Notes under the pieces: model-generated
Database searches by the model: none
The model's input: the letters and a program-made list of their open reading frames with translations, nothing else
What the model was told of the DNA's origin: nothing
Shown here: positions 6,609 through 64,000 of the stretch, in pieces
How positions within the stretch are numbered: the first letter of the stretch is position 1
Layout of the letters: each line of letters begins with the position of its first letter
Translations under genes and position numbers: made by a program
NCBI GenBank assembly: GCA_963665115.1
Contig: OY762007.1
Span: 4,288,001-4,352,000 of the forward strand
Source: an uncultured Rivularia sp.
Lineage (GTDB): Bacteria > Cyanobacteriota > Cyanobacteriia > Cyanobacteriales > Nostocaceae
Reading direction: 5' to 3'
DNA length: 64,000 nt

Positions 6609-7280
6609 TTATTTTTTAACTTGCTCAATTATAGCTTGAGTTTGTTGATAATTTTGGGTATCTCTCTGTTGACGAAAAAGACTTGCGGCTTTTTGTAAAT
6701 CCGCTACAGCGCTACGCTTATTTCCTAAAGCGTATTCTGCCAAACCCCGATTACCATAAGCTTCGGCTAAGTTTGGATTCAGTTTTAATGCTTTATTCAA
6801 GTCCGTAATAGCTTGTTTGTGATTTCCTTGTCTATAATTTGCGAGTCCTAAATTATAGTAAGCATCGACAAACTTTGGATCTATTTTTATCGTCTTCTCA
6901 AAGTCAGCCACAGCTGAGGGGGTATCTCCCAATGTTGCATAGACATTTCCTCGACTGTGATAAGCATCTGCATGGCTAGGATTAAGGCGTATTGCTTGAT
7001 TAAAATCTGTTATCGCTGCTTGATGATTGCCTAATTGGGATTTAGCAAGACCCCTCAGACAGAAACCTTCATAAAATTGAGGATTAGTTTGTACTACGTT
7101 ATCAAAATCTTTTATAGCTTCCTGGAAGTTACCTCGTTCGAGTTGTTGCATCCCCTGCTTAAATTGTTGCTGAAAATTAATTTGTTTTGTGCGCGGTGCT
7201 TGGGCATTGACTACAACAGGTATTCCGCTAAGTATACCTGTTAATCCGACAATGGCGAATCCTATGCGGATATAGTTCAT
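6609..7280 (-). CDS. Secreted TPR-repeat protein
   Basis: Signal peptide; several 34-aa TPR units (AYYNLG, AYGNRG, AIxDF). Confidence 0.9.
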   Translation of the reverse strand: MNYIRIGFAIVGLTGILSGIPVVVNAQAPRTKQINFQQQFKQGMQQLERGNFQEAIKDFDNVVQTNPQFYEGFCLRGLAKSQLGNHQAAITDFNQAIRLNPSHADAYHSRGNVYATLGDTPSAVADFEKTIKIDPKFVDAYYNLGLANYRQGNHKQAITDLNKALKLNPNLAEAYGNRGLAEYALGNKRSAVADLQKAASLFRQQRDTQNYQQTQAIIEQVKK

Positions 7281-22069: not shown

Positions 22070-22095
22070 CTTTCGCTCTCCTAATTAAAATTATT
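22008..22095. repeat. 88-bp perfect direct repeat, copy B
   Basis: Identical to 19770-19857; includes the last codons of the sigma factor. Confidence 0.9.
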
Positions 22096-23079
22096 CAAAT
22101 AAATGCGTGAGTTCGTTCCATATCGTCGTAAAAAAGTAAAAGCTTGTCGCTGTAGCAGTAGCACTCTATCTTGAGCAATACCTGTTCGCTGACTAATTTG
22201 TTTTAGCGTAAGTTCTTCTTCCCCCGTTAAACCGAATCGCAAGGTCAATATTTCTTGCTGTTGAGGAGAAAGTTTAGATAATAAATTTTGAACAGTTTGC
22301 TTAAGGGATTCTTTTACAACATAGTCGAATGGAGAATAATTTTCTGAAACTAATAAATCTTGCAATTGCGTATTTTGTTCTGTTCCTACTTTTACATCTA
22401 AAGACATCGGTTTACAAGCTAATCTCAAGCATTCTCTGACTTGATTTGGTTTGAAACCCAGAGCCTCAGCAATTTCAATCACAGTTGGATTGCGACCAAG
22501 TTTCTGAGATAATTCTCGCTGAACTCGTTTAATTTTATTCAACTTCTCAGTAATGTGAATCGGTAAGCGAATTGTACGAGATTGTTGGGATATGGCTCGC
22601 GTAATTCCCTGACGAATCCACCAGTAAGCATAGGTTGAAAACTTGTATCCTAATGCTGGTTGAAATTTATCAACTGCTCGCTCCAATCCTAAAGTTCCTT
22701 CTTGAATTAAGTCGGGAAAATCCAAGTTGCGCTTTTGGTATTTTTTAGCAATTGTGACAACCAAACGTAGATTAGCCGCAATCATTTTTTGTTTGGCTTT
22801 TTGTCCCCGATCTATTTGTTCAAGTAGCTCCGAATCATTCAATTGAGCTTTATCTGACCATTCTTGTAAAGTTGGTTGACGCTGTAATTTTTCAGATAAT
22901 TCTTCTTTTAATGCTAACAAAGAAATTTTTTGCTGAACTTGTTTAGCTAGAAAAATTTCTTCTTCAGAAGTTAATAGCGGTATGCGGACAATATCTTGAA
23001 AATAACTACCGACAGCATCTTTTGAATATTTACGATTTTTGTTACTGTCATTATTTGGTTGGGAGTTATAGTTAGACAT
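22081..23079 (-). CDS. Group-2-like sigma-70 factor (paralog A)
   Basis: ANLRLVV, DLIQEG, KFSTYAYWWIRQGITR, RTIRLPIH. Confidence 0.9.
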   Translation of the reverse strand: MSNYNSQPNNDSNKNRKYSKDAVGSYFQDIVRIPLLTSEEEIFLAKQVQQKISLLALKEELSEKLQRQPTLQEWSDKAQLNDSELLEQIDRGQKAKQKMIAANLRLVVTIAKKYQKRNLDFPDLIQEGTLGLERAVDKFQPALGYKFSTYAYWWIRQGITRAISQQSRTIRLPIHITEKLNKIKRVQRELSQKLGRNPTVIEIAEALGFKPNQVRECLRLACKPMSLDVKVGTEQNTQLQDLLVSENYSPFDYVVKESLKQTVQNLLSKLSPQQQEILTLRFGLTGEEELTLKQISQRTGIAQDRVLLLQRQAFTFLRRYGTNSRIYLNNFN

Positions 23080-23235
23080 GGTTAGGTTAGTCTCAGAAGT
23101 AACGCACGCTGGTTAATTGGTGTGAATGTTAAATAAAAAATTGCTTAAATCTCAAGCATTAAAATAGAAAATACTTTCTGTGATAAACCCCTTAGTAACT
23201 TATTATTTTGGATAAATTTATAAAACTCAAAAATT

Positions 23236-23332
23236 AAAAGAAAAAGGTTGTACTCTTAACGTAGAGTAACGCGAAGTACAACCGAGTGGTGTGTGTGTGA
23301 AAGTTTTGAATAATATAGTTATTTATGTTTAC
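23236..23332 (-). ncRNA. Candidate Yfr1-like small RNA / attenuator (copy A)
   Basis: CopR-box promoter, ACTTTCACACACACACCAC tract, GGTTGTACT...AGTACAACC stem, U-tract; ends inferred. Confidence 0.55.
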
Positions 23333-23338
23333 TTAATT

Positions 23339-23372
23339 AGTGTGACATCTTGAAATGAAATTAGGATGAAAT
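23339..23372 (-). promoter_or_regulatory. CopR-like box plus -10
   Basis: ATTTCATCCTAATTTCAT-N10-CACACT. Confidence 0.75.
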
Positions 23373-23396: not shown

Positions 23397-24779
23397 TCAG
23401 ATATTTGATGGGGGAATAACTTTCAAAGGTAGACGAATGCTAAAAATACTACCTTTACTCAATTGACTTTGTACCAGTATTTTTCCTCCATGTGCTTGAG
23501 CGATAACTTGTGCGATCGCCAATCCCAAACCCGAGCCACCACTGCGACGAGAGCGAGAAGTATTGACGCGATAGAAGCGGTCAAAAATTACTTGTTGTTC
23601 TTGAGGTGAAATGCCAATACCTGTATCAATTACTTCTATAACTGCATCGCCGTTGTTTTTTTTCAAAATAAGATTTATATTGCCACCAGCAGGAGTGTAT
23701 TGAATGGCATTGGCAATTAAATTAGAAAGTAGGCGTAACAGTTGGTCTTCATCTCCCATAACGTATAAGGGTTGATGAGATAAAATCGAGTATTCTAATC
23801 GCAAAGAAGATGCATTTGCTAAAGCTGAAAATTCTTCGATTAAATCCTCAATCAATATATTAAGAGAGCAAGGTTGCTTTGTAGGTATTAGAGTTTGCTG
23901 TTCCAATCGGGAAAGTAATAGCAAATCTTGTACTAATTCAGCCAAGCGAATATTTTGACGTTTTACCGATGTTAGAACATCTCGCGCTTGTTGTTCGGAC
24001 AGTTCAGAACTATCGAGTATAGTTTCTACCTTGGCATTAACTGCTGCTAGGGGAGTCCGCAATTCATGAGAGACATCAGAGGTAAACTGCTGCATTTGTT
24101 TGTAGGAGCGATTAATCGGTTGTATTGCCAAACCAGCTAGCCACCAACTCGAACCGCCAACTAATAGTATTGTAATTGGTAATCCAAATCCCAAAATCAA
24201 TTTAAAAGCCGCCAAACGATTATCTAGTTCTTTAAGACTGCGACCTACTTGTATGTAGCCCCAAAGTTGATTATTTTGGGTATGCAGTGGCAAAGATTTT
24301 TGACTGTAACGAATTCCTCTGGTGTCTTTGAGTGTTTGCCATCCTTTGGTTTGTACCTTCTGAGGTAATTCATTTGGAGGAAAGCCAGCCACAGCAATCA
24401 AATTTTTAGAATTATCAATAAAACGGACGTAATATATTTTATCTTGGTAAAAGGTACTAAAAATGCCGTGTTGAGAATGAACAAGTCGAATGTGGGTAGG
24501 AATTTTATTATTAATTGAACAATCGGAGTCAGGTAAGCATAGATTGGGTAAAACCACTTGAAAAATCGGCTCCAAGCGTTTGGGTTGCTGTAAAGTCGGT
24601 TCGATAACGCTGTGTAAAGTACCCGTGACAGCTTCTAATTCCCTATCAATGGAAAGCAGGTAAGCACGAATCATTACCTGGTAGATAGCGACACCGCACA
24701 GGCTCAAAAACAAACCCATAGCTACCCCATACCATGCCGCCAGTCGCCACCGAGTTTTATTAAATACTTTAATCTGCAT
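23397..24779 (-). CDS. Metal-sensing histidine kinase (CopS/RppB-like)
   Basis: Two TM helices, His-containing periplasmic loop, SHELRTPL, NLIANAIQY, GSGLGL. Confidence 0.88.
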   Translation of the reverse strand: MQIKVFNKTRWRLAAWYGVAMGLFLSLCGVAIYQVMIRAYLLSIDRELEAVTGTLHSVIEPTLQQPKRLEPIFQVVLPNLCLPDSDCSINNKIPTHIRLVHSQHGIFSTFYQDKIYYVRFIDNSKNLIAVAGFPPNELPQKVQTKGWQTLKDTRGIRYSQKSLPLHTQNNQLWGYIQVGRSLKELDNRLAAFKLILGFGLPITILLVGGSSWWLAGLAIQPINRSYKQMQQFTSDVSHELRTPLAAVNAKVETILDSSELSEQQARDVLTSVKRQNIRLAELVQDLLLLSRLEQQTLIPTKQPCSLNILIEDLIEEFSALANASSLRLEYSILSHQPLYVMGDEDQLLRLLSNLIANAIQYTPAGGNINLILKKNNGDAVIEVIDTGIGISPQEQQVIFDRFYRVNTSRSRRSGGSGLGLAIAQVIAQAHGGKILVQSQLSKGSIFSIRLPLKVIPPSNI

Positions 24780-25470
24780 TGGCAGGATTAAAGCGATAAC
24801 CCATACAGGGAATAGTTTCGATAAAAGTATCCCAACCATACTTAGATAATTTGCGTCGTAAAAGTCGCATTTGAGCCGCTACTACATTACTCACCCGTTC
24901 CGTATCAAATGTATAAAGATGATTCAAAATTTGGTCGCGGGTAACAATTACGTCAGGATGTTTCATCAAGTATTCTAATAAGTGAAACTCTTTTTTGGTT
25001 AAAGTAATTATTTTTGTTTCGCCATTAGCATACTGACAAGTAACTGCAAAATTACCGTAGTCTAAAGTTAGATTACCTACTTCCAAATGCTGGGACTGAA
25101 ATTGCGGTACGCGCCTTTGCAAAGCCCGCAACCGTGCTAATAATTCTTCCATTCCGAAAGGTTTTACCAAGTAATCATCCGCACCAGCATCCAAACCAGC
25201 AACTTTATCTTCCATGCTATCCCTAGCTGTTAATATCAGTACGGGTAATGGATTGTTCCGAAGCCGTAAATGCTTGCATAATTCCAAACCCGATAATCCC
25301 GGTAATAACCAGTCAAAGACTGCTAATGTATATTGATTTGAGTTATTTTGCAAGCAACTCCAAGCTTCATCCCCATCTAACACCCAGTCAACAATATATC
25401 TTTCTTTGCTCAATTTCTGCTGAATTGATGCACCCAAATCTGGTTCATCTTCTACCAGTAAAACTTTCAT
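24769..25470 (-). CDS. OmpR-family response regulator (CopR/RppA-like)
   Basis: LLVEDE, DWLLPG, GADDYLVKPF, SNVVAAQMRLLRRKL. Confidence 0.9.
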   Translation of the reverse strand: MKVLLVEDEPDLGASIQQKLSKERYIVDWVLDGDEAWSCLQNNSNQYTLAVFDWLLPGLSGLELCKHLRLRNNPLPVLILTARDSMEDKVAGLDAGADDYLVKPFGMEELLARLRALQRRVPQFQSQHLEVGNLTLDYGNFAVTCQYANGETKIITLTKKEFHLLEYLMKHPDVIVTRDQILNHLYTFDTERVSNVVAAQMRLLRRKLSKYGWDTFIETIPCMGYRFNPANAD

Positions 25471-27825: not shown

Positions 27826-30800
27826 TCATCTCCTCTTACTATTATTGAGAATAGTTAAATCTTGATTCGCAGTAATTTCTGAAGCGGTTTCCATCTGAAC
27901 TACGGCTGAGTTTTGTTTGGGTATTAAATACTTGCCGAATTTACTATACAAAGCCGGAAGCACCAACAAAGTTAAAGCTGTAGAAGTAAACAAACCACCC
28001 AATACAACTATCGCTAAAGGCTGCAAAATTTCTTTACCCGCACCAGTCCCGATTACCAGAGGAACCATACCTAATGCAGATGTTAAAGCTGTCATTAAAA
28101 TAGCAACAAGTCTTTCCATTGAACCTTGAGAAATGACTTCTCGTAAAGGCATTCCCATTGCAAACTTGCTGTTATAGTTTTCTACTAAAAGCAAACCGTT
28201 ACGAGTAGCTACGCCGAATAAAGTAATAAATCCCACCATTGATGCTACCGAAAGAATACCACCACCCAAAGCCACGGAAAAAACTCCACCAGCTAACGCT
28301 AAAGGTAGATTACTCATAATCATTAAAGTTGCTGGTATTGATTTGACTGCGAAGTACATCAAAACAGCGATGACAATCATTGATAAACCGCCAAATATCA
28401 GGAAATTTTGGGAGGCTCGTTGTTCGGATTCAAACTGACCGCCATACTGAATAAAATAACCAGATGGTACTTGCACTTGCTCTTTAACTTTGGCGCGAAT
28501 TTCATCCACAGCAGAACCTAAGTCTCTACCGGAAACGTTGGTAGAAACAACTATTAAGCGGGAAACGTTTTCTCGGTTAATGGTATTGGGACCAGTTCCG
28601 TAGTCAATTTTTGCTACTGCTGCTAAAGGTATTTTCTGTCCGTTGGGAGTATCGACAAGTAAATTGCGAATGGTGTCTAAGTTGTTTCGTGCTTGTGGTT
28701 TTAACCATACTAATAAGTCAAAAAGCTGCTGTTTCTCTAATACCTGAGATACTACCCGACCATTTAATGCAGTTTCGGTGATTGATGATAAATCCCCCAC
28801 GGAAAGACCGTAACGAGCTGCTGCATCGCGGTCAAATTGAATTTGCACCTGTTTTATGGGTACTTGCGGTTCTAACTGCAAATCTACTAAACCGGGAATA
28901 TCTTGCATTACTCCTTCCACTTCTTTCCCCAAAGCGCGTAACTCTTCGAGTTCCGGACCGAATATTTTCACGGCGATCGCACTTCTGACACCGGACAAAA
29001 TTTCATCCATGCGGTGGGAAATAAAACCTCCTATAACCCCTACTGAACCAGGTATTTTGGCGAATTCCTCTCTAACTTTTTCTACCGTTGCTTCCCTATC
29101 TTTCATTCCTTCATCGCTAATCTCAATATCGAGGTGCGATAAGTTGACGGGTGCTGCATCCGCATCTCCAGGAGCGCGTCCGGAACGCATTTGTACTGAT
29201 GTAATCCGGGGGGTCATCTTTGAGTGCTGCTTCAATTGCATTTCCAGCTTGGTTGGTAACTTCTAAGGATGTACCGGGATAAAGCAGCATGGAATTAACT
29301 AAAGTACGCTCCTGAAATTCCGGTAAAAATACTCGTCCCAAACTTGTAAAAATGACCATTGATGCCACAAAAGCCGCAACAGCAGTTAAAATCACCACGT
29401 TGCAACGTTTTATAGAAAAATTCAATAGGGGACGGTATAGCTTTTGCGACCAGCGAGTTAACCAGGTTTCATCATCCCGCAGTCTCTTTTTAGTTAACAG
29501 TATGGCGCACAACGCTGGAGATAAAGTCATTGCTACCAAGGTTGAAGATAAAATTGACACCAAATAAGCCCAACCCATCGGTGCAAAAATCCGACCTTCT
29601 ACCCCAGTTAAAGTAAAAATTGGCGCGAAAACTACGGCTATAATTACTGTCGAAAAAATAACGCTGGTTCGTACCTGCACTGAAGTGTCAAATACCACCT
29701 GGAAAGGATGTACGGGATTTTCTGCTTGCTGATTTTCCTGCAATCCCCGGTAGGCATTTTCCATATCAACAATAGAATCATCAACTACCGAACCGATAGC
29801 TACTACCAATCCTCCCAAAGTCATAGTATTAATACCTTGACCAAAGAAATTGAGAATCATCATCCCAATTAACACCGACAAAGGAATAGCGCTAAGAGTA
29901 ATAATTGCAGTGCGCCAATTCATCAAAAACATCAGCAAAATAATTGAAACAATTATCGTGCCATCCCTGAGAGAACTAGTAACATTTTTTATAGCATCAT
30001 CAATAAAATTTTGCTGGCGAAAAGTAACTGTATATTTAACATTGGCAGGTAAGCTAGGCTCAAGTTCTGCCATTGCCGCTTCTACAGCCCGACTTATCGT
30101 AGGAGTATCAGCTTGGGGTTGTTTGTTAACCATCACTACAACCGCAGGTTGGGTATTAAAACTACCATCACCCCGCTTTAATGCCGCACCAATTTGCACA
30201 TCGGCAATATCTCTTAATAATACAGGGGTACCATCACGAGCGGTAACAACTGACTTCTGCAAATCCTCAATTTCAGTAACTCTTCCGATACCGCGAATTA
30301 ATAATTCTTGGTCTGGGTCAATTAAAAATCCACCAGCCGCATTACTATTAGCTTTAGCAGCAGCTGTGGTGACATCTTCTAAAGAAACATTAAAAGCCTT
30401 TAGTTTAGCAGGGTCAACTAAAACTTGATATTGGCGGATATCTCCCCCATAAGTAATTAATTGAGAAACACCCGGAACAGCGAGCAGACGGTTTGTCACA
30501 ACTAAGTCAACAAATCGTCTTACCTCCATCATGTCAGTTGTCGTTTTCCCTTCTTCTGAATCGATAGTAAAAGCATAGGAAAGTACTGTTCCGATGGGGG
30601 AACTAATCGGAGAAATTTGTGGTGATTCAATATTATCTGGCAGTTTTTGCGACGCTTGCTGCAATCTCTCGGTGACTAACTGTCGAGCTTGATAAATATC
30701 TGTACCCCAATTAAAAATAACTTTGACAACAGAAATACCAACCCCAGAAGAAGAGCGCACGGTTTCTACACCAGGAGTACCATTGACAGCACTTTCAATC

Positions 30801-31003
30801 GGTAAACTAATTAAAGATTCTACTTCTTCGGGAGCTAATCCCGGTGCTTCGGTTTGAATTTCTACTTGGGGTGGAGCAAAGTTAGGAAAAACATCCAAAG
30901 GCATTTGAGTTAGGTTGTAAACTCCTAACATCATGACAATCATTGCTCCAATCACCACCAGCCACCGCTGTACAATCGACCATTTCAGAATGTTATCAAT
31001 CAT
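27826..31003 (-). pseudogene. CusA/CzcA-family heavy-metal RND permease split by +1 frameshift
   Basis: Two overlapping ORFs join as KDDPRITSVQMRSGRAPGD if one G of the G6 run at 29208-29213 is removed; VVDDSIVD, RLVAILMTALT. Confidence 0.88.
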
Positions 31004-37729: not shown

Positions 37730-38722
37730 CTAATTATTCAAAAAAATACGCGATTTCTTTCCATATCGTTGTAGAAAAGCCAGAGCTTGTCGCTGTAGCT
37801 GTAGCACTCTTTGACGAGAAATACCCATTCGCTGACTAACTTGATTTAATGTCAATTCTTGTCCATCTTCTAAACCATAACGCAAGGTTAATATTTCTTG
37901 CTGTTGAGGAGAAAGTTTGGATAACAAGTCTTTAATAGTTTGGTTGAGGGATTCTTTTAAAACGTAGTCTTCTGGAGAAAAACTATTGTCTTCTAACAAA
38001 TCTTTTAAATCTGTATTTTGTTCTTCTCCCACTCGTACATCTAAAGACATCGGTTTACGAGCCAAACTTAAGTAATCTCGAATTTGACTTGGTTTCACTT
38101 CCATTACCTCAGCAATTTCAGTCACAGATGGATTGCGACCAAGTTTTTGTGATAATTCTCGTTGAACTCGTTTGATTTTATTTAGTTTCTCCGTGATATG
38201 AATCGGTAAACGAATTGTGCGAGATTGCTGGGATATTGCTCGCGTAATTCCCTGACGAATCCACCAGTAAGCGTAAGTAGAAAACTTGTATCCCAACGCT
38301 GGTTGAAATTTATCAACTGCTCGCTCTAATCCTAAAGTTCCTTCTTGAATCAAGTCGAGAAAATCCAGATTACGTTTCTGGTATTTTTTAGCAATTGTGA
38401 CTACTAAACGCAGATTAGCCGCAATCATTTTTTGTTTAGCTCGTTGTCCCCGATCTATTTGTTCGAGTAGTTCTGTATCATTCAATTGAGCCTTGTCTGA
38501 CCATTCTTGAAGAGTTGGTTGACGCTGTAACTTCTTAGATAATTCTTCTTTAATCGCTAACAAAGACATCCGTTGCTGAACTTTTTTAGCCAAATTAATT
38601 TCTTCTTCGGAAGTTAACAGCGGTATGCAAATTATATCTTGAAAATAACTACCGACAGTATCTTTTGAAGATTTACAAGTTTTTTTACTGTCCTTATTTG
38701 GTTGAGAAATAGGGTTAGACAT
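37730..38722 (-). CDS. Group-2-like sigma-70 factor (paralog B)
   Basis: Same motifs as paralog A; ATG 38722 aligns with paralog A start. Confidence 0.9.
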   Translation of the reverse strand: MSNPISQPNKDSKKTCKSSKDTVGSYFQDIICIPLLTSEEEINLAKKVQQRMSLLAIKEELSKKLQRQPTLQEWSDKAQLNDTELLEQIDRGQRAKQKMIAANLRLVVTIAKKYQKRNLDFLDLIQEGTLGLERAVDKFQPALGYKFSTYAYWWIRQGITRAISQQSRTIRLPIHITEKLNKIKRVQRELSQKLGRNPSVTEIAEVMEVKPSQIRDYLSLARKPMSLDVRVGEEQNTDLKDLLEDNSFSPEDYVLKESLNQTIKDLLSKLSPQQQEILTLRYGLEDGQELTLNQVSQRMGISRQRVLQLQRQALAFLQRYGKKSRIFLNN

Positions 38723-38867
38723 AAGATAATTAGCTTCTACTGAACGCACGCTGGTTAATCTTGAAAAAAGTTTTGCTTAAGTATTAAGTTTGAAAATAAG
38801 AAGTATTTTTGATGATAAACCCTTTGTAATTTATTATGTTTGATAAATTTATATAAATCAAAGAATC

Positions 38868-38989
38868 AAAAGAAAGAGGTTGTACTTTGAAAGCAGAGTT
38901 TCGCTAAGTACAACCAAGTGGTGTGTGTGTGAGGAGTGATTTATTTGAAATCACAATGTAAACGTAAACAATATAAATATTCACGTTCA
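38868..38989 (-). ncRNA. Candidate Yfr1-like small RNA (copy B)
   Basis: GTGATTT-N5-AAATCAC stem, ACTCCTCACAC (38927-38937), terminator stem 38878-38915, U-tract; ends inferred. Confidence 0.62.
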
Positions 38990-38995
38990 CTTACT

Positions 38996-39029
38996 AGTAT
39001 GTTATCTAAAAATGAAATTAAGATGAAAT
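38996..39029 (-). promoter_or_regulatory. CopR-like box plus -10
   Basis: ATTTCATCTTAATTTCAT-N10-CATACT. Confidence 0.78.
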
Positions 39030-39059: not shown

Positions 39060-39107
39060 TTAACTGGCGCTAAAATCTGGTTCGTCTTCTTCGAGTAAAA
39101 CTTTCAT
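39060..39107 (-). pseudogene. 15-codon relic of a second response regulator (TCS deleted)
   Basis: MKVLLEEDEPDFSAS* versus MKVLLVEDEPDLGAS at 25470. Confidence 0.8.
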
Positions 39108-39135: not shown

Positions 39136-39618
39136 CTAACTAACACGCAGTCGGGCTATGCCTACAGGTACTGTTTGTTTTGAATCAACAAAATTAACAA
39201 ACACTTTGTACAGCATTTCGCCCCTGGTAGCACGTAATTTTCTAACTTTGTTCATCTCTATAGTAAGCTTTGTTCTAGGAGGAACGGGTTCGGAAAATGT
39301 TAATACTGCTTTCTTCTCATCGATAGCAACAGAGGCGTTAATCTTTTCTCCCGATTGATTAGAGACATCAATATTATCCCTTAGCACTATATTATTTGGG
39401 GCTTCAATAATAATTTTTGACACAGCATTACTTTGTTCAGAAATGGCAATTTTTAAGGTATGTCTAAGAATGCTCCAATGGCGAATACCTTTAGGAAATT
39501 CTGAAAAATTAGTAATACGAGCAAAATTGGTAGCTGCTGTTGTTGGTTGTGCTATAGCAGTACCAATTGATACGGCTAATGTGAAAGTAGCGGCAGTATA
39601 AAATAATATTTTTTTCAT
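39136..39618 (-). CDS. Secreted DUF2808-like protein (paralog of 25504)
   Basis: High identity to the 25504-25986 product. Confidence 0.75.
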   Translation of the reverse strand: MKKILFYTAATFTLAVSIGTAIAQPTTAATNFARITNFSEFPKGIRHWSILRHTLKIAISEQSNAVSKIIIEAPNNIVLRDNIDVSNQSGEKINASVAIDEKKAVLTFSEPVPPRTKLTIEMNKVRKLRATRGEMLYKVFVNFVDSKQTVPVGIARLRVS

Positions 39619-40551: not shown

Positions 40552-40585
40552 AGTATGATGGATACTTATGAAATCAGGATGAAAT
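40552..40585 (-). promoter_or_regulatory. CopR-like box plus -10 (leftward)
   Basis: ATTTCATCCTGATTTCAT-N10-CATACT. Confidence 0.78.
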
Positions 40586-57490: not shown

Positions 57491-60274
57491 CTACACCTGA
57501 TAAACCTTTAATATTTCATCACCATAGTGATTAATCACCTTAACCGCAATCTTCCCAGGTTTACCGTTTTTATTTCGGGGTGAGTCAAAAGGACGGCTAA
57601 TAGCAGAATAAAGGTCTAACCATGCATCTTGATCAACTTCTGCTTTCAGAGTTTTCCTAAGCTTTTCATAGGGTTTATTTGCTCCAGTAAAATAAGCATG
57701 ACGTACAAAAAAACTTTCACCGTTGTAGTTGGTGTCGATGAACCAGCAAGCAATATCATTTATTGAACTGCTGCGGATTTCGCCAGTGGTGGGGTCGTAA
57801 ATATCTAAACCCTTTAGTTCTACGGTAATTTTGCCATCATCAAGATGTTGGACTTCAATATCTGGTTCTCCAAAAACCATGAACAAGTTACCCGAACCAG
57901 TTTTTTTAAGTACTTCATCACCTAGAAGTAAATCGGGATTCATTTTAGTAACTAATACTTGTAACTTACCGTAGCGTTTAGATTCTTCGGATACGCCAGG
58001 GTCAAATGCAAAACCACAGACAATCAGCAAATCATAGCTTATCCCTTGTACTGCTTCTTTGGCTGCTTCTTTGATTTGGTCGGAGCCAACTGTACCGTAT
58101 TCCGGACCAATAGAAACTGCAACTCGTTTTACCGTACCATCTTTTTCGGTATATTCTCCTTCTGCTTGTATCCATTCACTAGCATAAGGTTCAAGGGAAT
58201 CAAATTTCAGTCGTTCACCTTTCTTAGTATTTTGAACTCCTGCTTTCCTTAAGTTCTCAATAATCCTAAATTCAAACTGGTCAGATGCTTGCTGTGTGGC
58301 TTCTGCCTCTGAAGCTGGTTGTTCTGAGTTAGTAGAAAGGACACGGTGTGGTGATAAACTTTCTACAGTAAACGGACCTGTTACTCGTAACCGCTTTTTA
58401 TCTTCGTAGGGTTGGTCGTAAAGGATTTCACTATCCGAATTGAGAGCGATAGATTCATCAATTTTTTTCTGACGTTCTTGTCTTAGCTTCCACCACTGCT
58501 GTAATAGGTCTTTGGCTTCCTGCGACCATTTATTTTCTGGTTCTCTAGGTATTTCCCATTCTTCCCACTTTTTCTTGAGCAGTTTATTTAACTGGGTACG
58601 AGTAGGTTCTAGTTTTTGTTGATACTTTTCGTGAATCGTATCGATTTCTGGATTGTTGGCGATCGCCTTTAAGGTAATGTGAGGTACGCGCTTGTAAACA
58701 AAGCCTTTTTTTATATCGTTTTCAGTTTTAATATTAGTTGGTGGTAATTTTGTGGTAATTTCTATTTCTTTTTCGATACCTTCTGTGGAATCAGCAAGTA
58801 GGTAGTAGGGGAATTGGGCTGACATTAAACGAGTTCGGGCTAGCGCTAGAGCAACGCGGCTAGTGTCGATGGTAATCCAACGTCTTCCCCATTGTTCAGC
58901 GACGTAGGCTGTGGTGGCACTTCCCATAGTTGGATCTAGGACTAAATCGCCAGGGTCGGTAGTCATAAGAAGACAACGTTCTACAATCTTTCTTACGGAC
59001 TGTACTACATATACTTTTTCTTCTCCTGCTTTTACGTCATCCCATACGTTGTATAGTTCTATTGCTGGAAAATCATCAATAAATCTTTTATAGTTGATAG
59101 AATTTTTAGTAGTTTGTAAACGATTAGCAAAAGCGAGACGTTTCATTCCTTCTGCATTTGTTTTCCAGCATCGACTAGAACCTGGATGAAATTTGCGTCC
59201 TAAAAACGAAAAAGTAAAAGTTGTTGTTGTACTTGCTGAACCAGAATAAAGTCCACTTAATTTATATGGTCGCCAATTATTAGGAATTAAATTAGGATTA
59301 TTTTTTTCTTCTGCTGTCAGAGAGCGATTAAATATTTTATCAGGAGACTCTATTTGGTCAAATCGCATTCCTGTTCCTTTTCCAACACCAACTTCTCTGG
59401 GTTTATAAAGCTGACGGTATTTTAAGAAATCGATGTTCTTGGCGTACCAAATAATATATGTTGCTGCTGACTGAAGATAGCGTGAACCCAAACCTGCTGA
59501 ACTAATGCAAGTGATAATACTAGCATAATTCTCACTTCCAAAAATTTCATCCATTAAACATCTAATTAAATGAACATTTTCATCACCAATCTGCACAAAA
59601 ACGCTACCAGTTTCAGTCAATAATTCTCTCGCTACAATCAAGCGATCGCGCATATAACTTAGATAGGAATGTATTCCTAATTCCCAAGTATCCCGAAAAG
59701 CTTTTACTTGTTCTGGTTGTCGGGTTGCTTCTTCTGCTTTACCATCTTTTACATCTCGCTTAAGAGTAGATACCTGCCAGTTTGATCCAAATTTAATCCC
59801 ATAAGGGGGATCAATGTAGATAGTTTGCACCTTACCTTTTAACCCCTCCTTCTCAGCTAAAGAAGCCATTACCGACAATGAGTCACCTAGAATCATGCGG
59901 TTAGTCCAACTAACCCCTTCTTTATGTTGATAAAAATCAATTAATTTCTCAAATGCTAAACCATTAAAATCACCAAACAAACTTAATTGCTCTGCTTTCT
60001 CTTGTTTAGCCTGAGTACGAAAGTCTTCAATTAATGCTTGGGGATGAATCTTTTCTTGAATATAAATTGGAACTGCGGAAACTTCTAAATCTTCTTTATC
60101 CTGTTCGTCTTTCGTATTCCAAACTAACTGAGGGTCTAAAGATATATCGCGAGAGTATAGTAAATTTGTTGCCTTTTTCTCTTCCTCTGATAAAAAATCG
60201 CGCAGTTCTTCTGTGGGAATATTTGCTCTTTTCTCTTTATGCTTAACAGTATTAATTTGAGTTTTTTTAGACAT
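57491..60274 (-). CDS. mod: Type III R-M adenine methyltransferase (Mod)
   Basis: YIDPPYGI, VLDPTMGSATTA, IAVKVIN. Confidence 0.88.
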   Translation of the reverse strand: MSKKTQINTVKHKEKRANIPTEELRDFLSEEEKKATNLLYSRDISLDPQLVWNTKDEQDKEDLEVSAVPIYIQEKIHPQALIEDFRTQAKQEKAEQLSLFGDFNGLAFEKLIDFYQHKEGVSWTNRMILGDSLSVMASLAEKEGLKGKVQTIYIDPPYGIKFGSNWQVSTLKRDVKDGKAEEATRQPEQVKAFRDTWELGIHSYLSYMRDRLIVARELLTETGSVFVQIGDENVHLIRCLMDEIFGSENYASIITCISSAGLGSRYLQSAATYIIWYAKNIDFLKYRQLYKPREVGVGKGTGMRFDQIESPDKIFNRSLTAEEKNNPNLIPNNWRPYKLSGLYSGSASTTTTFTFSFLGRKFHPGSSRCWKTNAEGMKRLAFANRLQTTKNSINYKRFIDDFPAIELYNVWDDVKAGEEKVYVVQSVRKIVERCLLMTTDPGDLVLDPTMGSATTAYVAEQWGRRWITIDTSRVALALARTRLMSAQFPYYLLADSTEGIEKEIEITTKLPPTNIKTENDIKKGFVYKRVPHITLKAIANNPEIDTIHEKYQQKLEPTRTQLNKLLKKKWEEWEIPREPENKWSQEAKDLLQQWWKLRQERQKKIDESIALNSDSEILYDQPYEDKKRLRVTGPFTVESLSPHRVLSTNSEQPASEAEATQQASDQFEFRIIENLRKAGVQNTKKGERLKFDSLEPYASEWIQAEGEYTEKDGTVKRVAVSIGPEYGTVGSDQIKEAAKEAVQGISYDLLIVCGFAFDPGVSEESKRYGKLQVLVTKMNPDLLLGDEVLKKTGSGNLFMVFGEPDIEVQHLDDGKITVELKGLDIYDPTTGEIRSSSINDIACWFIDTNYNGESFFVRHAYFTGANKPYEKLRKTLKAEVDQDAWLDLYSAISRPFDSPRNKNGKPGKIAVKVINHYGDEILKVYQV

Positions 60275-60332
60275 GGTTAATTACTCTACTTATTAATAAA
60301 AAAATGGATAAAGAAGTTCTTAGTAATCAGCA

Positions 60333-63300
60333 TTAAGCCGCTTGAAGATTGCCGACAGTAGACTGTTTACTAATAAAAGTCCGAACCGTATTTTCTGCAT
60401 CCCAAGGGTCGGTAATTTCAATAAAATTCCACCGACCAAAACCACCGTGCTGATTAATTGCAGGTATCCAAAGATTACGAGTAGTTGCAACCTTAATTGC
60501 TTTGTCTGTTCTTGCTTCTCCAGATACTTCTACAATTAAATTCAACAAGTCACCTTGATCGTCATCAACTTTCACAATGAAATCAGGCATATAGTTCTTT
60601 TGTTGACCTTTCAAGGTATAGGGAATTAAGAAACCAACTCCTTGATTCTTGACATAACAAACTACTTCTTCCATGTCTTCTAATACCTGTGCCATCTTCT
60701 GTTCCCAACTATTAGTATCAGCAACAACATGAGAAATATGGCATTTATGAAGGTCGGTAATATAAGTTGGACGAGCGGTACTAAAGTCTACGTAACGAGT
60801 AGACCCCATCGGGTCATAAGGACGTAAAATCGGTTTTAAAGATTTTTCTTTTTCACCAGCAACTATAGCTTGATAAATACAATCTGAAGCATCATGGGCA
60901 AATTCATTTAACAGTAATAATTGGGAATATGTTCCAGATTTATAGGTAACGCATTCTTTTATCCATTGCTTAGCTATCTGTAATACTTGAGGGAATAACC
61001 AAACTTGTACCTCAGAATCATCAAGAGAATAATTTTCTAGCTTTTCCTGCTTTTGAGTACCGTCTTGACGAAAATATTTCTCTAAAGTTAATTTCGCTAA
61101 TAAAAAAGCGACTTCTTGTTCTCTGCGTGTTTTCAAGTCATCCAGAGTATGAATACTTGATTTACCAATAATTGGAGCATTTTCGGTTTTGGTAGGTAAA
61201 TTGTCTGTAGACAAAGAATATTTACAACCAGGTTTATTAAAATCTGGTGTCAGTTTTTGGCTCTTTATTTCGTAACGGTAGCCCAACAACCGAGGGAAAG
61301 TTATCTCATAATCAATTCGTTCTGGAAGTGCGCGGACGCGGGTAGGTAATGCTCCTCGTTTTGGTTGTTTATTAGAACCTGCACAAGGAATAAAGGCAAA
61401 GGGAACACCGTAGACTTCCGCATACTCTGGGGTAAAAGACTCAATTTCAATACTCTTACCATTGACGTTAATTTGATTAACGGTAGGAGTATAACTAATG
61501 CGTCTTAAACCTCTTCCTACAACTTGTTCGCATAAAAGCTGAGTACCAAATGCTCTCACCCCTAAAATGTGGGTAACTGTATTAGCATCCCAACCTTCGG
61601 TCAGCATCGAAACTGAAACAACACAACGAATATGTTCGCCTAATTTACCGGATTTACCAACAGTGTTTAACACCTCACGTAACAAGTCTTCATTGGTAAT
61701 TTTATCCGGGTCTTGACCTGGGTATCTTACCCGATAATCAGCTTTAAACTCTTCTATCTCCCGCGCAGCTAATTTCTTAAACTCATCACTCATAGCTTCC
61801 CCAGACTCTAACTGCTTGCTATCTACCAAAATCGTGTTAGGTTTAGCCGTCCAATTGCCATCTTTGACATTGTTAAATAAAGTTAATTGTCCAGGAGCTA
61901 AAACAGGTCTTTTATCTGGGTAAACTTTACCAGTATCCCAACCAGAGATATAGTCATAAACCATCTTGGAAACACTGGTATTGTTGCAAACTAAGATAAA
62001 CACCGGGGGTGTTAATCCCTTACTCTGTGCATCAGTATTTTCCAACCACTGATGATATTCCTTTTCGTAGTTACCATATAACGTCCTCAATGCTCCTTCT
62101 AATTCTTTAGGTAACTTAGGCTCTGGTGTAGATGGCTCGCTTTCTTTCTTACTTCTCCCCTTTTTGGGTAAATGGTCGCGAATCAAATTCCAAATATTGC
62201 GATAAGTAGGCAATTCACCCTTCATACTATCGTCGGAAACTGGTACGCGGGGAATTTTAACAATACCTGATTCAATAGCATCAATTAAAGAAAAATCAGA
62301 TACTACCCAAGGAAATAACGTTCCTTCCTTGTAACCAGAACCCTTCAAGAAAAATGGAGTCGCAGAAAGGTCATAAACTACCTTTACCCCCAACTTCTGT
62401 TGTATTGCTTCTAACCCAGAAATCCAGATTCTAGCTTCCTCTTCATTCTTCTTAGCTTCTTTTAAATCATCACCTTTATATTTTTCTTCATCACCACCAA
62501 CACGACGACGGTAACAGTGGTGTGCTTCATCATTAATGACAATAATATTTTTCTTTTTCCCCAGTCCCCGACATACCCTATTAACCATTTGGGATGGGGT
62601 TTCTGTAAATGGACTTTCCTTATCTTTAATTAAAATACTTTTAGTTAATTTACCAACATTAGTATGTTCTCTTAATTGAAAAGCATGATAGTTAGTGATA
62701 ATAATCTTGGCTTTCTCTAAATCTGGCAATAAATCAGCAGGAACTAAATCTAACTTCTTATAATAATTTTCTGGGTCATTAGGCTGAATTACACGCAGGC
62801 GATCGCGAATTGTAATCCCTGGTGCTACGACTAAAAAAGTATCGCTAAACTCTCGACGTTGCGGGTTAGCAATTTTATTCAGCGAATGCCAAGCAATCAG
62901 CATCGACATCAAAACTGTTTTACCAGTACCAGTTGCCATCTTCAACGCTTGACGAAATAGCAACGGGTTAGCATCATCTTTAAATTTGTTCAGATTATTT
63001 TCAATCCAGGTATCCCCAGACTTTCTTGCCACTTCAGCTATGTAAATAGCTGTTTCTAAAGCCTCAATCTGACAAAAGAATAACCGTCTTTCTCGCTCTG
63101 GATTTGTCCAATGCTCTAATAATCGCCGCGTTATTGGTGTGATATTTACTTCACTCCGATAACCACCACGTCGCCACAATGAAACGCGATCGCGAATGTC
63201 GTTAATAAATTTATTTTCCTCTATTTGGTCTTGCGTCCATGAACCAAAGTCAAGCTCTAGCTGCTTATCTTTTTTCTTAGGCTGGGCAATAGGAATAAAA

Positions 63301-63425
63301 TATTGGCTTTTACGCCTTTGTTCAATAATATCATTAGTAATACCATCATCACCAAAGCGAAAATGCCGTTGAGGTTCAGTAAATGGCGAATTAATAATTG
63401 GGTTTTCAATAATGACCTGTTCCAC
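60333..63425 (-). CDS. res: Type III restriction endonuclease/helicase (Res)
   Basis: MATGTGKT, DEAHH, SATP, LTEGWD, QVVGRGLR, YMPDF...EVSG; likely GTG start. Confidence 0.88.
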   Translation of the reverse strand: MEQVIIENPIINSPFTEPQRHFRFGDDGITNDIIEQRRKSQYFIPIAQPKKKDKQLELDFGSWTQDQIEENKFINDIRDRVSLWRRGGYRSEVNITPITRRLLEHWTNPERERRLFFCQIEALETAIYIAEVARKSGDTWIENNLNKFKDDANPLLFRQALKMATGTGKTVLMSMLIAWHSLNKIANPQRREFSDTFLVVAPGITIRDRLRVIQPNDPENYYKKLDLVPADLLPDLEKAKIIITNYHAFQLREHTNVGKLTKSILIKDKESPFTETPSQMVNRVCRGLGKKKNIIVINDEAHHCYRRRVGGDEEKYKGDDLKEAKKNEEEARIWISGLEAIQQKLGVKVVYDLSATPFFLKGSGYKEGTLFPWVVSDFSLIDAIESGIVKIPRVPVSDDSMKGELPTYRNIWNLIRDHLPKKGRSKKESEPSTPEPKLPKELEGALRTLYGNYEKEYHQWLENTDAQSKGLTPPVFILVCNNTSVSKMVYDYISGWDTGKVYPDKRPVLAPGQLTLFNNVKDGNWTAKPNTILVDSKQLESGEAMSDEFKKLAAREIEEFKADYRVRYPGQDPDKITNEDLLREVLNTVGKSGKLGEHIRCVVSVSMLTEGWDANTVTHILGVRAFGTQLLCEQVVGRGLRRISYTPTVNQINVNGKSIEIESFTPEYAEVYGVPFAFIPCAGSNKQPKRGALPTRVRALPERIDYEITFPRLLGYRYEIKSQKLTPDFNKPGCKYSLSTDNLPTKTENAPIIGKSSIHTLDDLKTRREQEVAFLLAKLTLEKYFRQDGTQKQEKLENYSLDDSEVQVWLFPQVLQIAKQWIKECVTYKSGTYSQLLLLNEFAHDASDCIYQAIVAGEKEKSLKPILRPYDPMGSTRYVDFSTARPTYITDLHKCHISHVVADTNSWEQKMAQVLEDMEEVVCYVKNQGVGFLIPYTLKGQQKNYMPDFIVKVDDDQGDLLNLIVEVSGEARTDKAIKVATTRNLWIPAINQHGGFGRWNFIEITDPWDAENTVRTFISKQSTVGNLQAA

Positions 63426-64000
63426 CGACCTATACCTTAAAAACAGCACATCAAAGCTGCGACTAATAGGTAAAATAAGGCGCAAAAATACGGCTAAATT
63501 TTATCAGTAATCGCAATATTATATCTGCGTAAGAAAAACTTACTTAGAGCTATATCTATCCAGTAACTTTTAAATATCCTTACCCAATTCGCAAATTTTT
63601 TTTTAAAATGAGCTTGATGGGTTTGGCTAGTCACATGGTATCAACTATAGTATCCGGAATTTTTTATACTGTCATGCTGTTGATTATACAGATAGAGGCT
63701 AAATTTATGAAATTATAGGTATTGCAGAAGATATTTTTGTAAAAAATTTATAAAGCAGTCTTATGTCAAGAATAATTTGCCAAAAAAGGCATTGCAAAAA
63801 ATCAGTATTTCTAAAGTTGTTCTTAAAAATTAAATCTAATAATAAATATATTAAATATACAGCTTTTGCACTCCGTAAGTTCCTCAGTATTCTTAAGTGC
63901 TATCCCCTAAAATTTAAAACAGTTTTAGTTTTAATTAAATTTAATCGTCGAAATCAAGATTTTGGAGTTGTGTAAATAATTTGTATTAGTACAGTTACAC

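Follow-up and report, generated by a model that had tools for sequence, protein, structure and literature searches.

The window, i.e. the whole stretch of 64,000 nucleotides that was analysed, contains a metal-resistance island in which a multicopper oxidase, CopB and ArsR were recognized by Pfam, while efflux pumps, P-type ATPases and an arsenic operon were read from ORF sequences. One heavy-metal RND efflux gene (27826-31003, minus strand) is apparently split into overlapping frames of 626 and 471 aa, its counterpart in genome G552 being a single 1058-aa ORF, and the right edge of the island (57491-63485, minus strand) carries a DNA methylase and restriction-helicase-like gene pair, also read from ORF sequences. 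Two sigma factor genes of the island are each preceded by a small intergenic element, referred to here as copy A and copy B, and their surroundings are organized as follows.

37730..38722, minus strand: accessory sigma factor of group 2, SigB-like, 330 aa when counted from the homolog-shared ATG
38743..38759, minus strand: 17-nt motif ATTAACCAGCGTGCGTT, about 20 nt 5' of the sigma ATG, also present at copy B (23101-23117, minus strand)
39060..39107, minus strand: stub of 15 codons left from a deleted rppA (a DNA contig joint has 2135 letters between)
39136..39618, minus strand: DUF2808 gene, upstream of copy A as in the paralogous cassette
22081..23079, minus strand: second sigma factor copy, 81% identical, behind copy B
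23236..23371, minus strand: paralogous short-form copy B, comprising box, -10 CACACT, ACTTTCACAC with CA tract, and terminator
23397..25470, minus strand: genes of the response regulator RppA and the histidine kinase RppB, immediately upstream of copy B (NCBIfam equivalog matches above cut-off)

Copy B is 73% identical to copy A and belongs to a cassette with the order DUF2808, rppA, rppB, element, sigma. Judging from the sequences, this cassette is duplicated and copy A has since lost its own two-component pair; because these genes are deleted, copy A would need a regulator in trans. The 17-nt motif ATTAACCAGCGTGCGTT has only two sites genome-wide and was exact in 13 of the 16 copies of the sigma clade (variant in three), a conservation that exceeds that of the seed described below. 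An inverted repeat, AAAATA-N5-TATTTT (window 38793-38809, minus strand), lies in the terminator-to-sigma interval and is kept in several copies; it is a possible operator or second promoter.

Copy A itself consists of the following parts.

39012..39028, minus strand: regulon box TTTCAT-N5-TTTCAT, a direct repeat, predicted from sequence to be an RppA/CopR-class response-regulator site
38996..39001, minus strand: -10 element CATACT, 10 bp past the box, with a predicted start at about 38991
38958..38990, minus strand: 5' hairpin 1, 13 bp (folding), absent from short-form copies
38936..38954, minus strand: hairpin 2, 7 bp, GTGATTT/AAATCAC, whose 3' arm includes undecamer bases 1-2
38916..38937, minus strand: Yfr1 undecamer (38927-38937) running into a CA tract to 38916, the predicted single-stranded seed
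38868..38915, minus strand: terminator-like stem GGTTGTACTT..AAGTACAACC (38878-38915) with U-rich tail (38868-38877), from folding and alignment

The undecamer ACTCCTCACAC together with the CA tract forms the seed of copy A and is preceded by the box, the -10 element and two hairpins. An earlier note on this DNA had already placed box, -10, short stem, undecamer with CA tract, strong stem and U-rich tail on the minus strand, all at positions which our analysis confirmed. Its layout of hairpins was right for the stems that it named and had overlooked a stronger 13-bp hairpin (38990-38958), so that there are three. Folding of the unit predicted three hairpins flanking an open stretch of 20 nt, at -35.4 kcal/mol (z -5.59), and 0 of 200 shuffles were equally stable. 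The undecamer is predicted to be accessible as a seed in copy A past its first 2 nt, with an unpaired probability of at least 0.95; since bases 1-2 sit inside hairpin 2, only UCCUCACAC is predicted to be free. The centroid coincided with the minimum-energy structure in a riboswitch check, and no riboswitch-like alternative or anti-terminator fold appeared in folding or in Yfr2 cofolding. A peptide reading was also rejected, any shared frame being broken by CA-unit and 26-33 nt indels in an alignment judged by eye.

The direct repeat TTCAT-N6-TTCAT is enriched in the window, with nine occurrences versus 0.26 expected. This regulon box also precedes other island genes and occurs on Nostocales metal plasmids, and CATACT follows at identical spacing behind two further boxes, one at window position 40584 and the other 12.1 kb beyond the left end of the window. 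The promoter had been called CopR-like. Its geometry is common to other island genes, and the TTCAT direct repeat is shared with the CopR regulon, but the published pattern is TTCAT-N4-5-TTCAT (PMC4182526) and N6 is one base over. In the available parts of the same source the regulon of Synechocystis CopRS is limited to copMRS and copBAC. The RppA beside copy B has its nearest source-named homolog in Rivularia sp. (88% identity) and is 73% and 68% identical to two RppA proteins of the Nostoc plasmid pCC7120beta. All7606 and All7584 of Nostoc PCC 7120 were termed putative CopR homologs of unknown role (PMC12282138, in part), and we infer from gene order that these locus tags designate the two pCC7120beta RppA genes; the All7584-83 and All7606-05 systems would then be the RppA relatives of the window regulator. 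By its sequence this regulator falls into the RppA/RppB class, for which 'CopR-like' is a fair label. It is presumed to bind the box, and the promoter is presumed to be metal-inducible.

Distribution of the element was evaluated with a covariance model built from five copies. It detected 13 strong copies (56-104 bits), which came from eight of the 26 other genomes of the genus, and no further match exceeded 26 bits; no strong match was obtained in 34 genomes of other genera, nor in 99 other-genus genomes of the family, a set that overlaps the 34. Among 401 genomes, the box plus CACACAC pattern was restricted to the element's own genome and the box plus ACTCCTC pattern was found in seven. Box and CA tract together were absent from 80 other group-2 sigma loci, drawn from the 5 of 64 parts of the collection that were scanned, and the plasmid sigB loci examined were without the element. 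A pattern scan of metagenomes gave 31 loci, among which two contigs were true copies and 29 loci were dropped for lack of the second stem arm; likewise, 98 matches of the element in other genomes were discarded as short matches, chiefly to the box. The unit is real and conserved, and among the genomes searched it is restricted to one genus rather than spread across Nostocales.

The sigma clade, at 79% identity or more, is confined to the same eight genomes that carry the element. Its 16 copies include 14 with the element directly upstream, one truncated where its contig ends and one (L265) without box and element, and in all copies with enough flank the box-driven element was only seen directly upstream of the accessory sigma gene. 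Two Calothrix plasmid sigB genes stand at most 85 nt behind a box with the element absent. These plasmid loci and L265 were counted for an element that may be separable from the sigma gene.

The 14 distinct box-to-tail sequences comprise eight long forms and six without the 5' hairpins. Box, CA tract and terminator are conserved among copies. The undecamer, which the earlier note took as the signature of Yfr1, is complete in only 4 of the 14: eight distinct copies read AC(T/C)T(T/C)CACAC at this position and the sequences of two diverged long forms are GCTCCTCCACAC and CGCTCTCACAC, the variable part being CCUC, which copy B lacks. The same note proposed to test whether orthologous loci conserve the CA tract; they do, YCACACA being present in 11/11 aligned copies with a full sigma gene. 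In the adjacent sigma gene, 32 of 70 four-fold sites were invariant, and 1 of 17 among those with a C/G majority. The CA tract appears to be kept better than synonymous sites and hence under selection, a contrast which is somewhat overstated because the repeat can realign. Six long forms had 91.8% of cells paired versus 38-47% in slid controls, and the terminator basal pairs were intact (10/10) in all six aligned long-form copies. Support from covariation is modest: three pairs showed two-sided changes, a count reached by 171 of 500 shuffles, and the terminator stem hardly varies.

Membership in Yfr1 was rejected. The Rfam Yfr1 model (RF01116, gathering cut-off 38 bits), by which the identity was to be checked, gave no match at the element at E values up to 10, and the native Yfr1 of this genome lies at another locus (C1:4580556, 62.5 bits). 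In both, the undecamer lies in a single-stranded stretch of 20 nt flanked by a 5' hairpin and a terminator, and pairing with Yfr2 is predicted; copy A presents ACUCCUCACAC in an unpaired stretch between two stems, within the criterion of 16-20 nt and with its first 2 nt paired. However, Yfr1 is defined as an RNA of 54-69 nt with two stem-loops (PMC2190773, in part), whereas the element is predicted to be about 120 nt long with three hairpins and other stems. Yfr1 is also constitutive, located at a guaB-trxA-type core locus and invariant in its undecamer, in contrast with an element that lies on an accessory island behind a regulon box. A plus-strand Yfr2 reading was dismissed as well, since the Cyano-1/Yfr2 model (RF01701), to which a CGGC-loop hairpin belongs, scored 24 bits against a cut-off of 41, on the complementary motif alone, and the plus strand of the element folds weakly.

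A closer likeness is found with Yfr10-like RNAs, which carry the Yfr1 motif and have been published as Prochlorococcus Yfr10, Yfr104, Synechocystis SyR5 and Nostoc TSS 2515196r and 3750139f (PMC6778093, in part). The statement that no such RNA had been described was therefore too strong, two of them being from Nostoc PCC 7120. Like the predicted RNA of the element, they are extra Yfr1-motif RNAs in a Yfr1-bearing cell, with poorly conserved structure and synteny. Yfr10 itself differs in bearing the motif in a loop atop a stem instead of between stems, and the available portions of PMC6778093 contain no description of these RNAs as island-borne, as sigma leaders or as controlled by metal two-component systems. 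In its sequence the element has the motif with a promoter and terminator of its own, and its putative RNA is predicted to pair with Yfr2 and to have part of the Yfr1 targets. If transcribed, it would be a Yfr10-like RNA.

Predicted mRNA partners were ranked by duplex energy plus a rough accessibility penalty, the leaders being taken from -35 to +12 at 6973 crudely called genes. The top 40 leaders of copy A included murC, porins, glmS, glmM, an LCP-family gene, omp85 and alr, and shared 21 genes with the top 40 of native Yfr1. Porins reached the top 1% in 8/14 cases for copy A and 7/14 for native Yfr1, compared with 0-3 for 12 base shuffles, and all eight homolog seeds tested ranked murC at 1-2, omp85 at 2-21 and alr at 9-49. 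Dinucleotide shuffles, which keep CA, were a more demanding control. On a set of 18 targets, four of which were chosen after inspecting ranked lists, copy A placed 12 in the top 1% versus 4-10 for 11 shuffles; copy B, with 6/18, was not above the control, since this lies within the range of its 11 shuffles (2-8). Pairing with porin and envelope leaders, as earlier suggested, is thus predicted, but CA-keeping shuffles score nearly as well, so the scan indicates that a free CA-rich tract fits these leaders and does not imply action on them. As full-length RNAs, both copies paired better than Yfr1 with murC and glmS, and native Yfr1 out-paired copy A on 4/4 porin leaders tested. In Nostoc, reporter assays have validated porins, murC, alanine racemase, Omp85 and conR as targets of Yfr1; in these assays Yfr1 requires its CCUC part, mutation of which cripples it (PMC6974561, in part), and CCUC is the part of the undecamer that varies among element copies. 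An island-borne porin gene was also observed downstream of sigB on Nostoc plasmids (L162:5418 on pCC7120beta), with a GTGTGAGG site in its leader that is likely a Yfr1 site.

The interpretation that we put first, and to which we give an even chance, is that copy A encodes a metal-regulon Yfr10-like small RNA, released as the terminated leader of the sigma gene. An RppA/RppB-class two-component system of the island would bind and activate the element promoter; most transcripts would end at the terminator, with a presumed efficiency sufficient to release a small RNA of about 120 nt, and read-through would supply the sigma gene at a lower level. The free CA-rich seed would pair, as that of Yfr1, with porin and cell-wall mRNAs at their ribosome-binding regions, with predicted repression of porins, murC, alr, omp85 and glmS and predicted binding of Yfr2. 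Such an RNA would, when induced, supplement the constitutive Yfr1 pool and could lower outer-membrane permeability in metal stress. Porin repression would be of benefit under metal because porin loss raises copper resistance in Anabaena, most porin mutants of which resist elevated copper (PMC9705863, in part). A like logic is known from CzcR/CopR and OprD of Pseudomonas aeruginosa, where a metal two-component system lowers a porin with involvement of an RNA chaperone; the genes are unrelated, repression is described as Hfq-dependent and at the level of transcription, and the available text of PMC5083921 names no sRNA.

Another explanation, possible although rather unlikely, is that the element acts in cis without any trans role. 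The terminator would cap sigma output as a leaky attenuator, and the CA tract would be a protein or RNA site tuning read-through or stability. The position directly upstream in 14 of 16 sigma-clade copies, with no copy found away from sigma, and a similar box-hairpin-U-tail leader ahead of rppAB on Nostocales plasmids both speak for such a leader. So does a single RNA contig that bridges the terminator toward sigma: it was obtained in one of three RNA runs (single mat sample), is 159 nt long (depth 2.9, 99% alike), covers 38776-38934, runs through the terminator and gives neither strand nor ends. This contig may be of DNA origin, and it neither demonstrates nor excludes a discrete RNA; for runs X5 and X6 no piece on the element was among the matches listed, which is not evidence of absence. 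However, there is no alternative anti-terminator fold, and the terminator was not disrupted when Yfr2 was cofolded with the element. A conserved Yfr1-like seed would also be unnecessary for a plain dampener.

It is improbable that the structure is an ordinary terminator of the upstream rppAB or DUF2808 gene with a CA microsatellite, the Yfr1 match being due to chance. The undecamer by itself is not rare enough to argue otherwise and is within chance expectation, with three sites in the 8.69 Mb genome versus 2.3 expected; one of the remaining two belongs to native Yfr1 and the other is complementary to an mRNA leader. Furthermore, the terminator of copy B lies about 115 nt past rppB, CA unit number varies between copies by slippage, and the copies share recent descent within one genus. 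However, in 14/14 distinct copies the box and -10 separate the terminator from the upstream gene, and the CA tract is kept better than synonymous sites. In two diverged copies from genome G556, the nearest upstream ORF (at least 70 aa in one, at least 100 aa in the other) is on the opposite strand; because it is divergent, the terminator most plausibly ends a box-driven RNA. A comparable terminator followed 9 of 400 random intergenic positions versus 3 of 21 intergenic CTCCTCACA sites. Two other places in the genome, C1:4963363(+) and C1:497664(+), have CTCCTCACA or a CA tract immediately 5' of a terminator and are candidates for further Yfr10-like RNAs or for 3' ends of upstream genes.

Yfr2 genes elsewhere in the genome include two above cut-off and one below. 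A tandem is located at C1:1331869 and C1:1332386 (+), and its first gene has a GU-repeat-extended 5' end, identical in 5/5 same-genus genomes checked. Yfr2a begins with GUGUGUGUGAGGAG, which is predicted to form 13 uninterrupted pairs with copy A for a gain of -25.5 kcal/mol, versus -23.9 for Yfr1; gains ranged from -18 to -26 for all 14 distinct copies, short forms pairing more weakly than Yfr1. Type-2 loops had poor Yfr2 pairing and modest porin ranks. Co-evolution of the element with Yfr2a is unsupported, given that the same Yfr2a 5' end was present in 3/3 checked genomes without the element. A main role as Yfr2 sponge, which would free native Yfr1 and leave direct mRNA pairing secondary, agrees with this strong pairing and with the published neutralization of Yfr1 and Yfr10 by Yfr2 (PMC6778093, in part), but it is hardly probable in view of the unchanged Yfr2a end, the weaker short forms and the fact that any seed-bearing RNA would unavoidably pair with Yfr2. 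The sponge and the cis dampener are not exclusive of a small RNA acting in trans.

Related box-driven units were found on Nostocales metal plasmids, where the leader of rppAB contains a long, U-tailed hairpin that bears ACTCCTC in the loop; of 12 aligned loci, 10 had this loop motif, among them pCC7120beta and one locus of the own genome, and further hairpins of this kind occur at L172-L180. The units located in the own genome and in the model strain are listed below.

L038:1378-1530 (G000 C1:4275245), minus strand: rppAB-leader hairpin, own genome
L161:19095-19250 (about 79,100-79,250), minus strand: rppAB-leader hairpin, pCC7120beta
L038:2385-2528 (G000 C1:4276251), minus strand: third box-driven unit, left of the window, with a small hairpin with GTTCCTCAT loop, an AU hairpin and a strong terminator

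The rppAB-leader hairpin, including that of Nostoc PCC 7120, is a candidate Yfr10-like RNA or attenuator; the pCC7120beta unit is absent from the four beta-plasmid rows of Table S3 of PMC4734099, a nitrogen-condition data set. The third unit had matches in 10 of 26 same-genus genomes. A more general proposal, which we put forward tentatively and consider doubtful, is that the mobile metal islands of Nostocales encode a set of small RNAs under regulator control. These would arise as the terminated leaders of sigma or two-component genes, join the Yfr1/Yfr2 network and shut porin and cell-wall synthesis under metal stress; copy A, the pre-rppAB hairpin and the C1:4276251 unit would be members of the set.

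Extra Yfr1-motif RNAs are already known, and what would be new is the control of such an RNA by a metal-island regulator, for which our searches found no precedent. These literature searches lay mostly outside subscription papers, the original CopR binding study included, and returned neither a cyanobacterial sRNA under a CopR/RppA box nor a described link from metal sensing to Yfr1 targets in cyanobacteria; the main-text passages of PMC12873609 available to us make no mention of an element-like structure. The predicted link from the metal-island regulator to Yfr1 targets comes with a seed conservation below that first claimed. Yfr1 is reported to be constitutive, and porin loss shields Anabaena from copper. 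If the interpretation is true, an inducible island-borne RNA with a Yfr1 seed would join metal sensing to Yfr1 targets, and accessory DNA would tap a core RNA network, an idea which the pCC7120beta candidate makes testable in a model strain.
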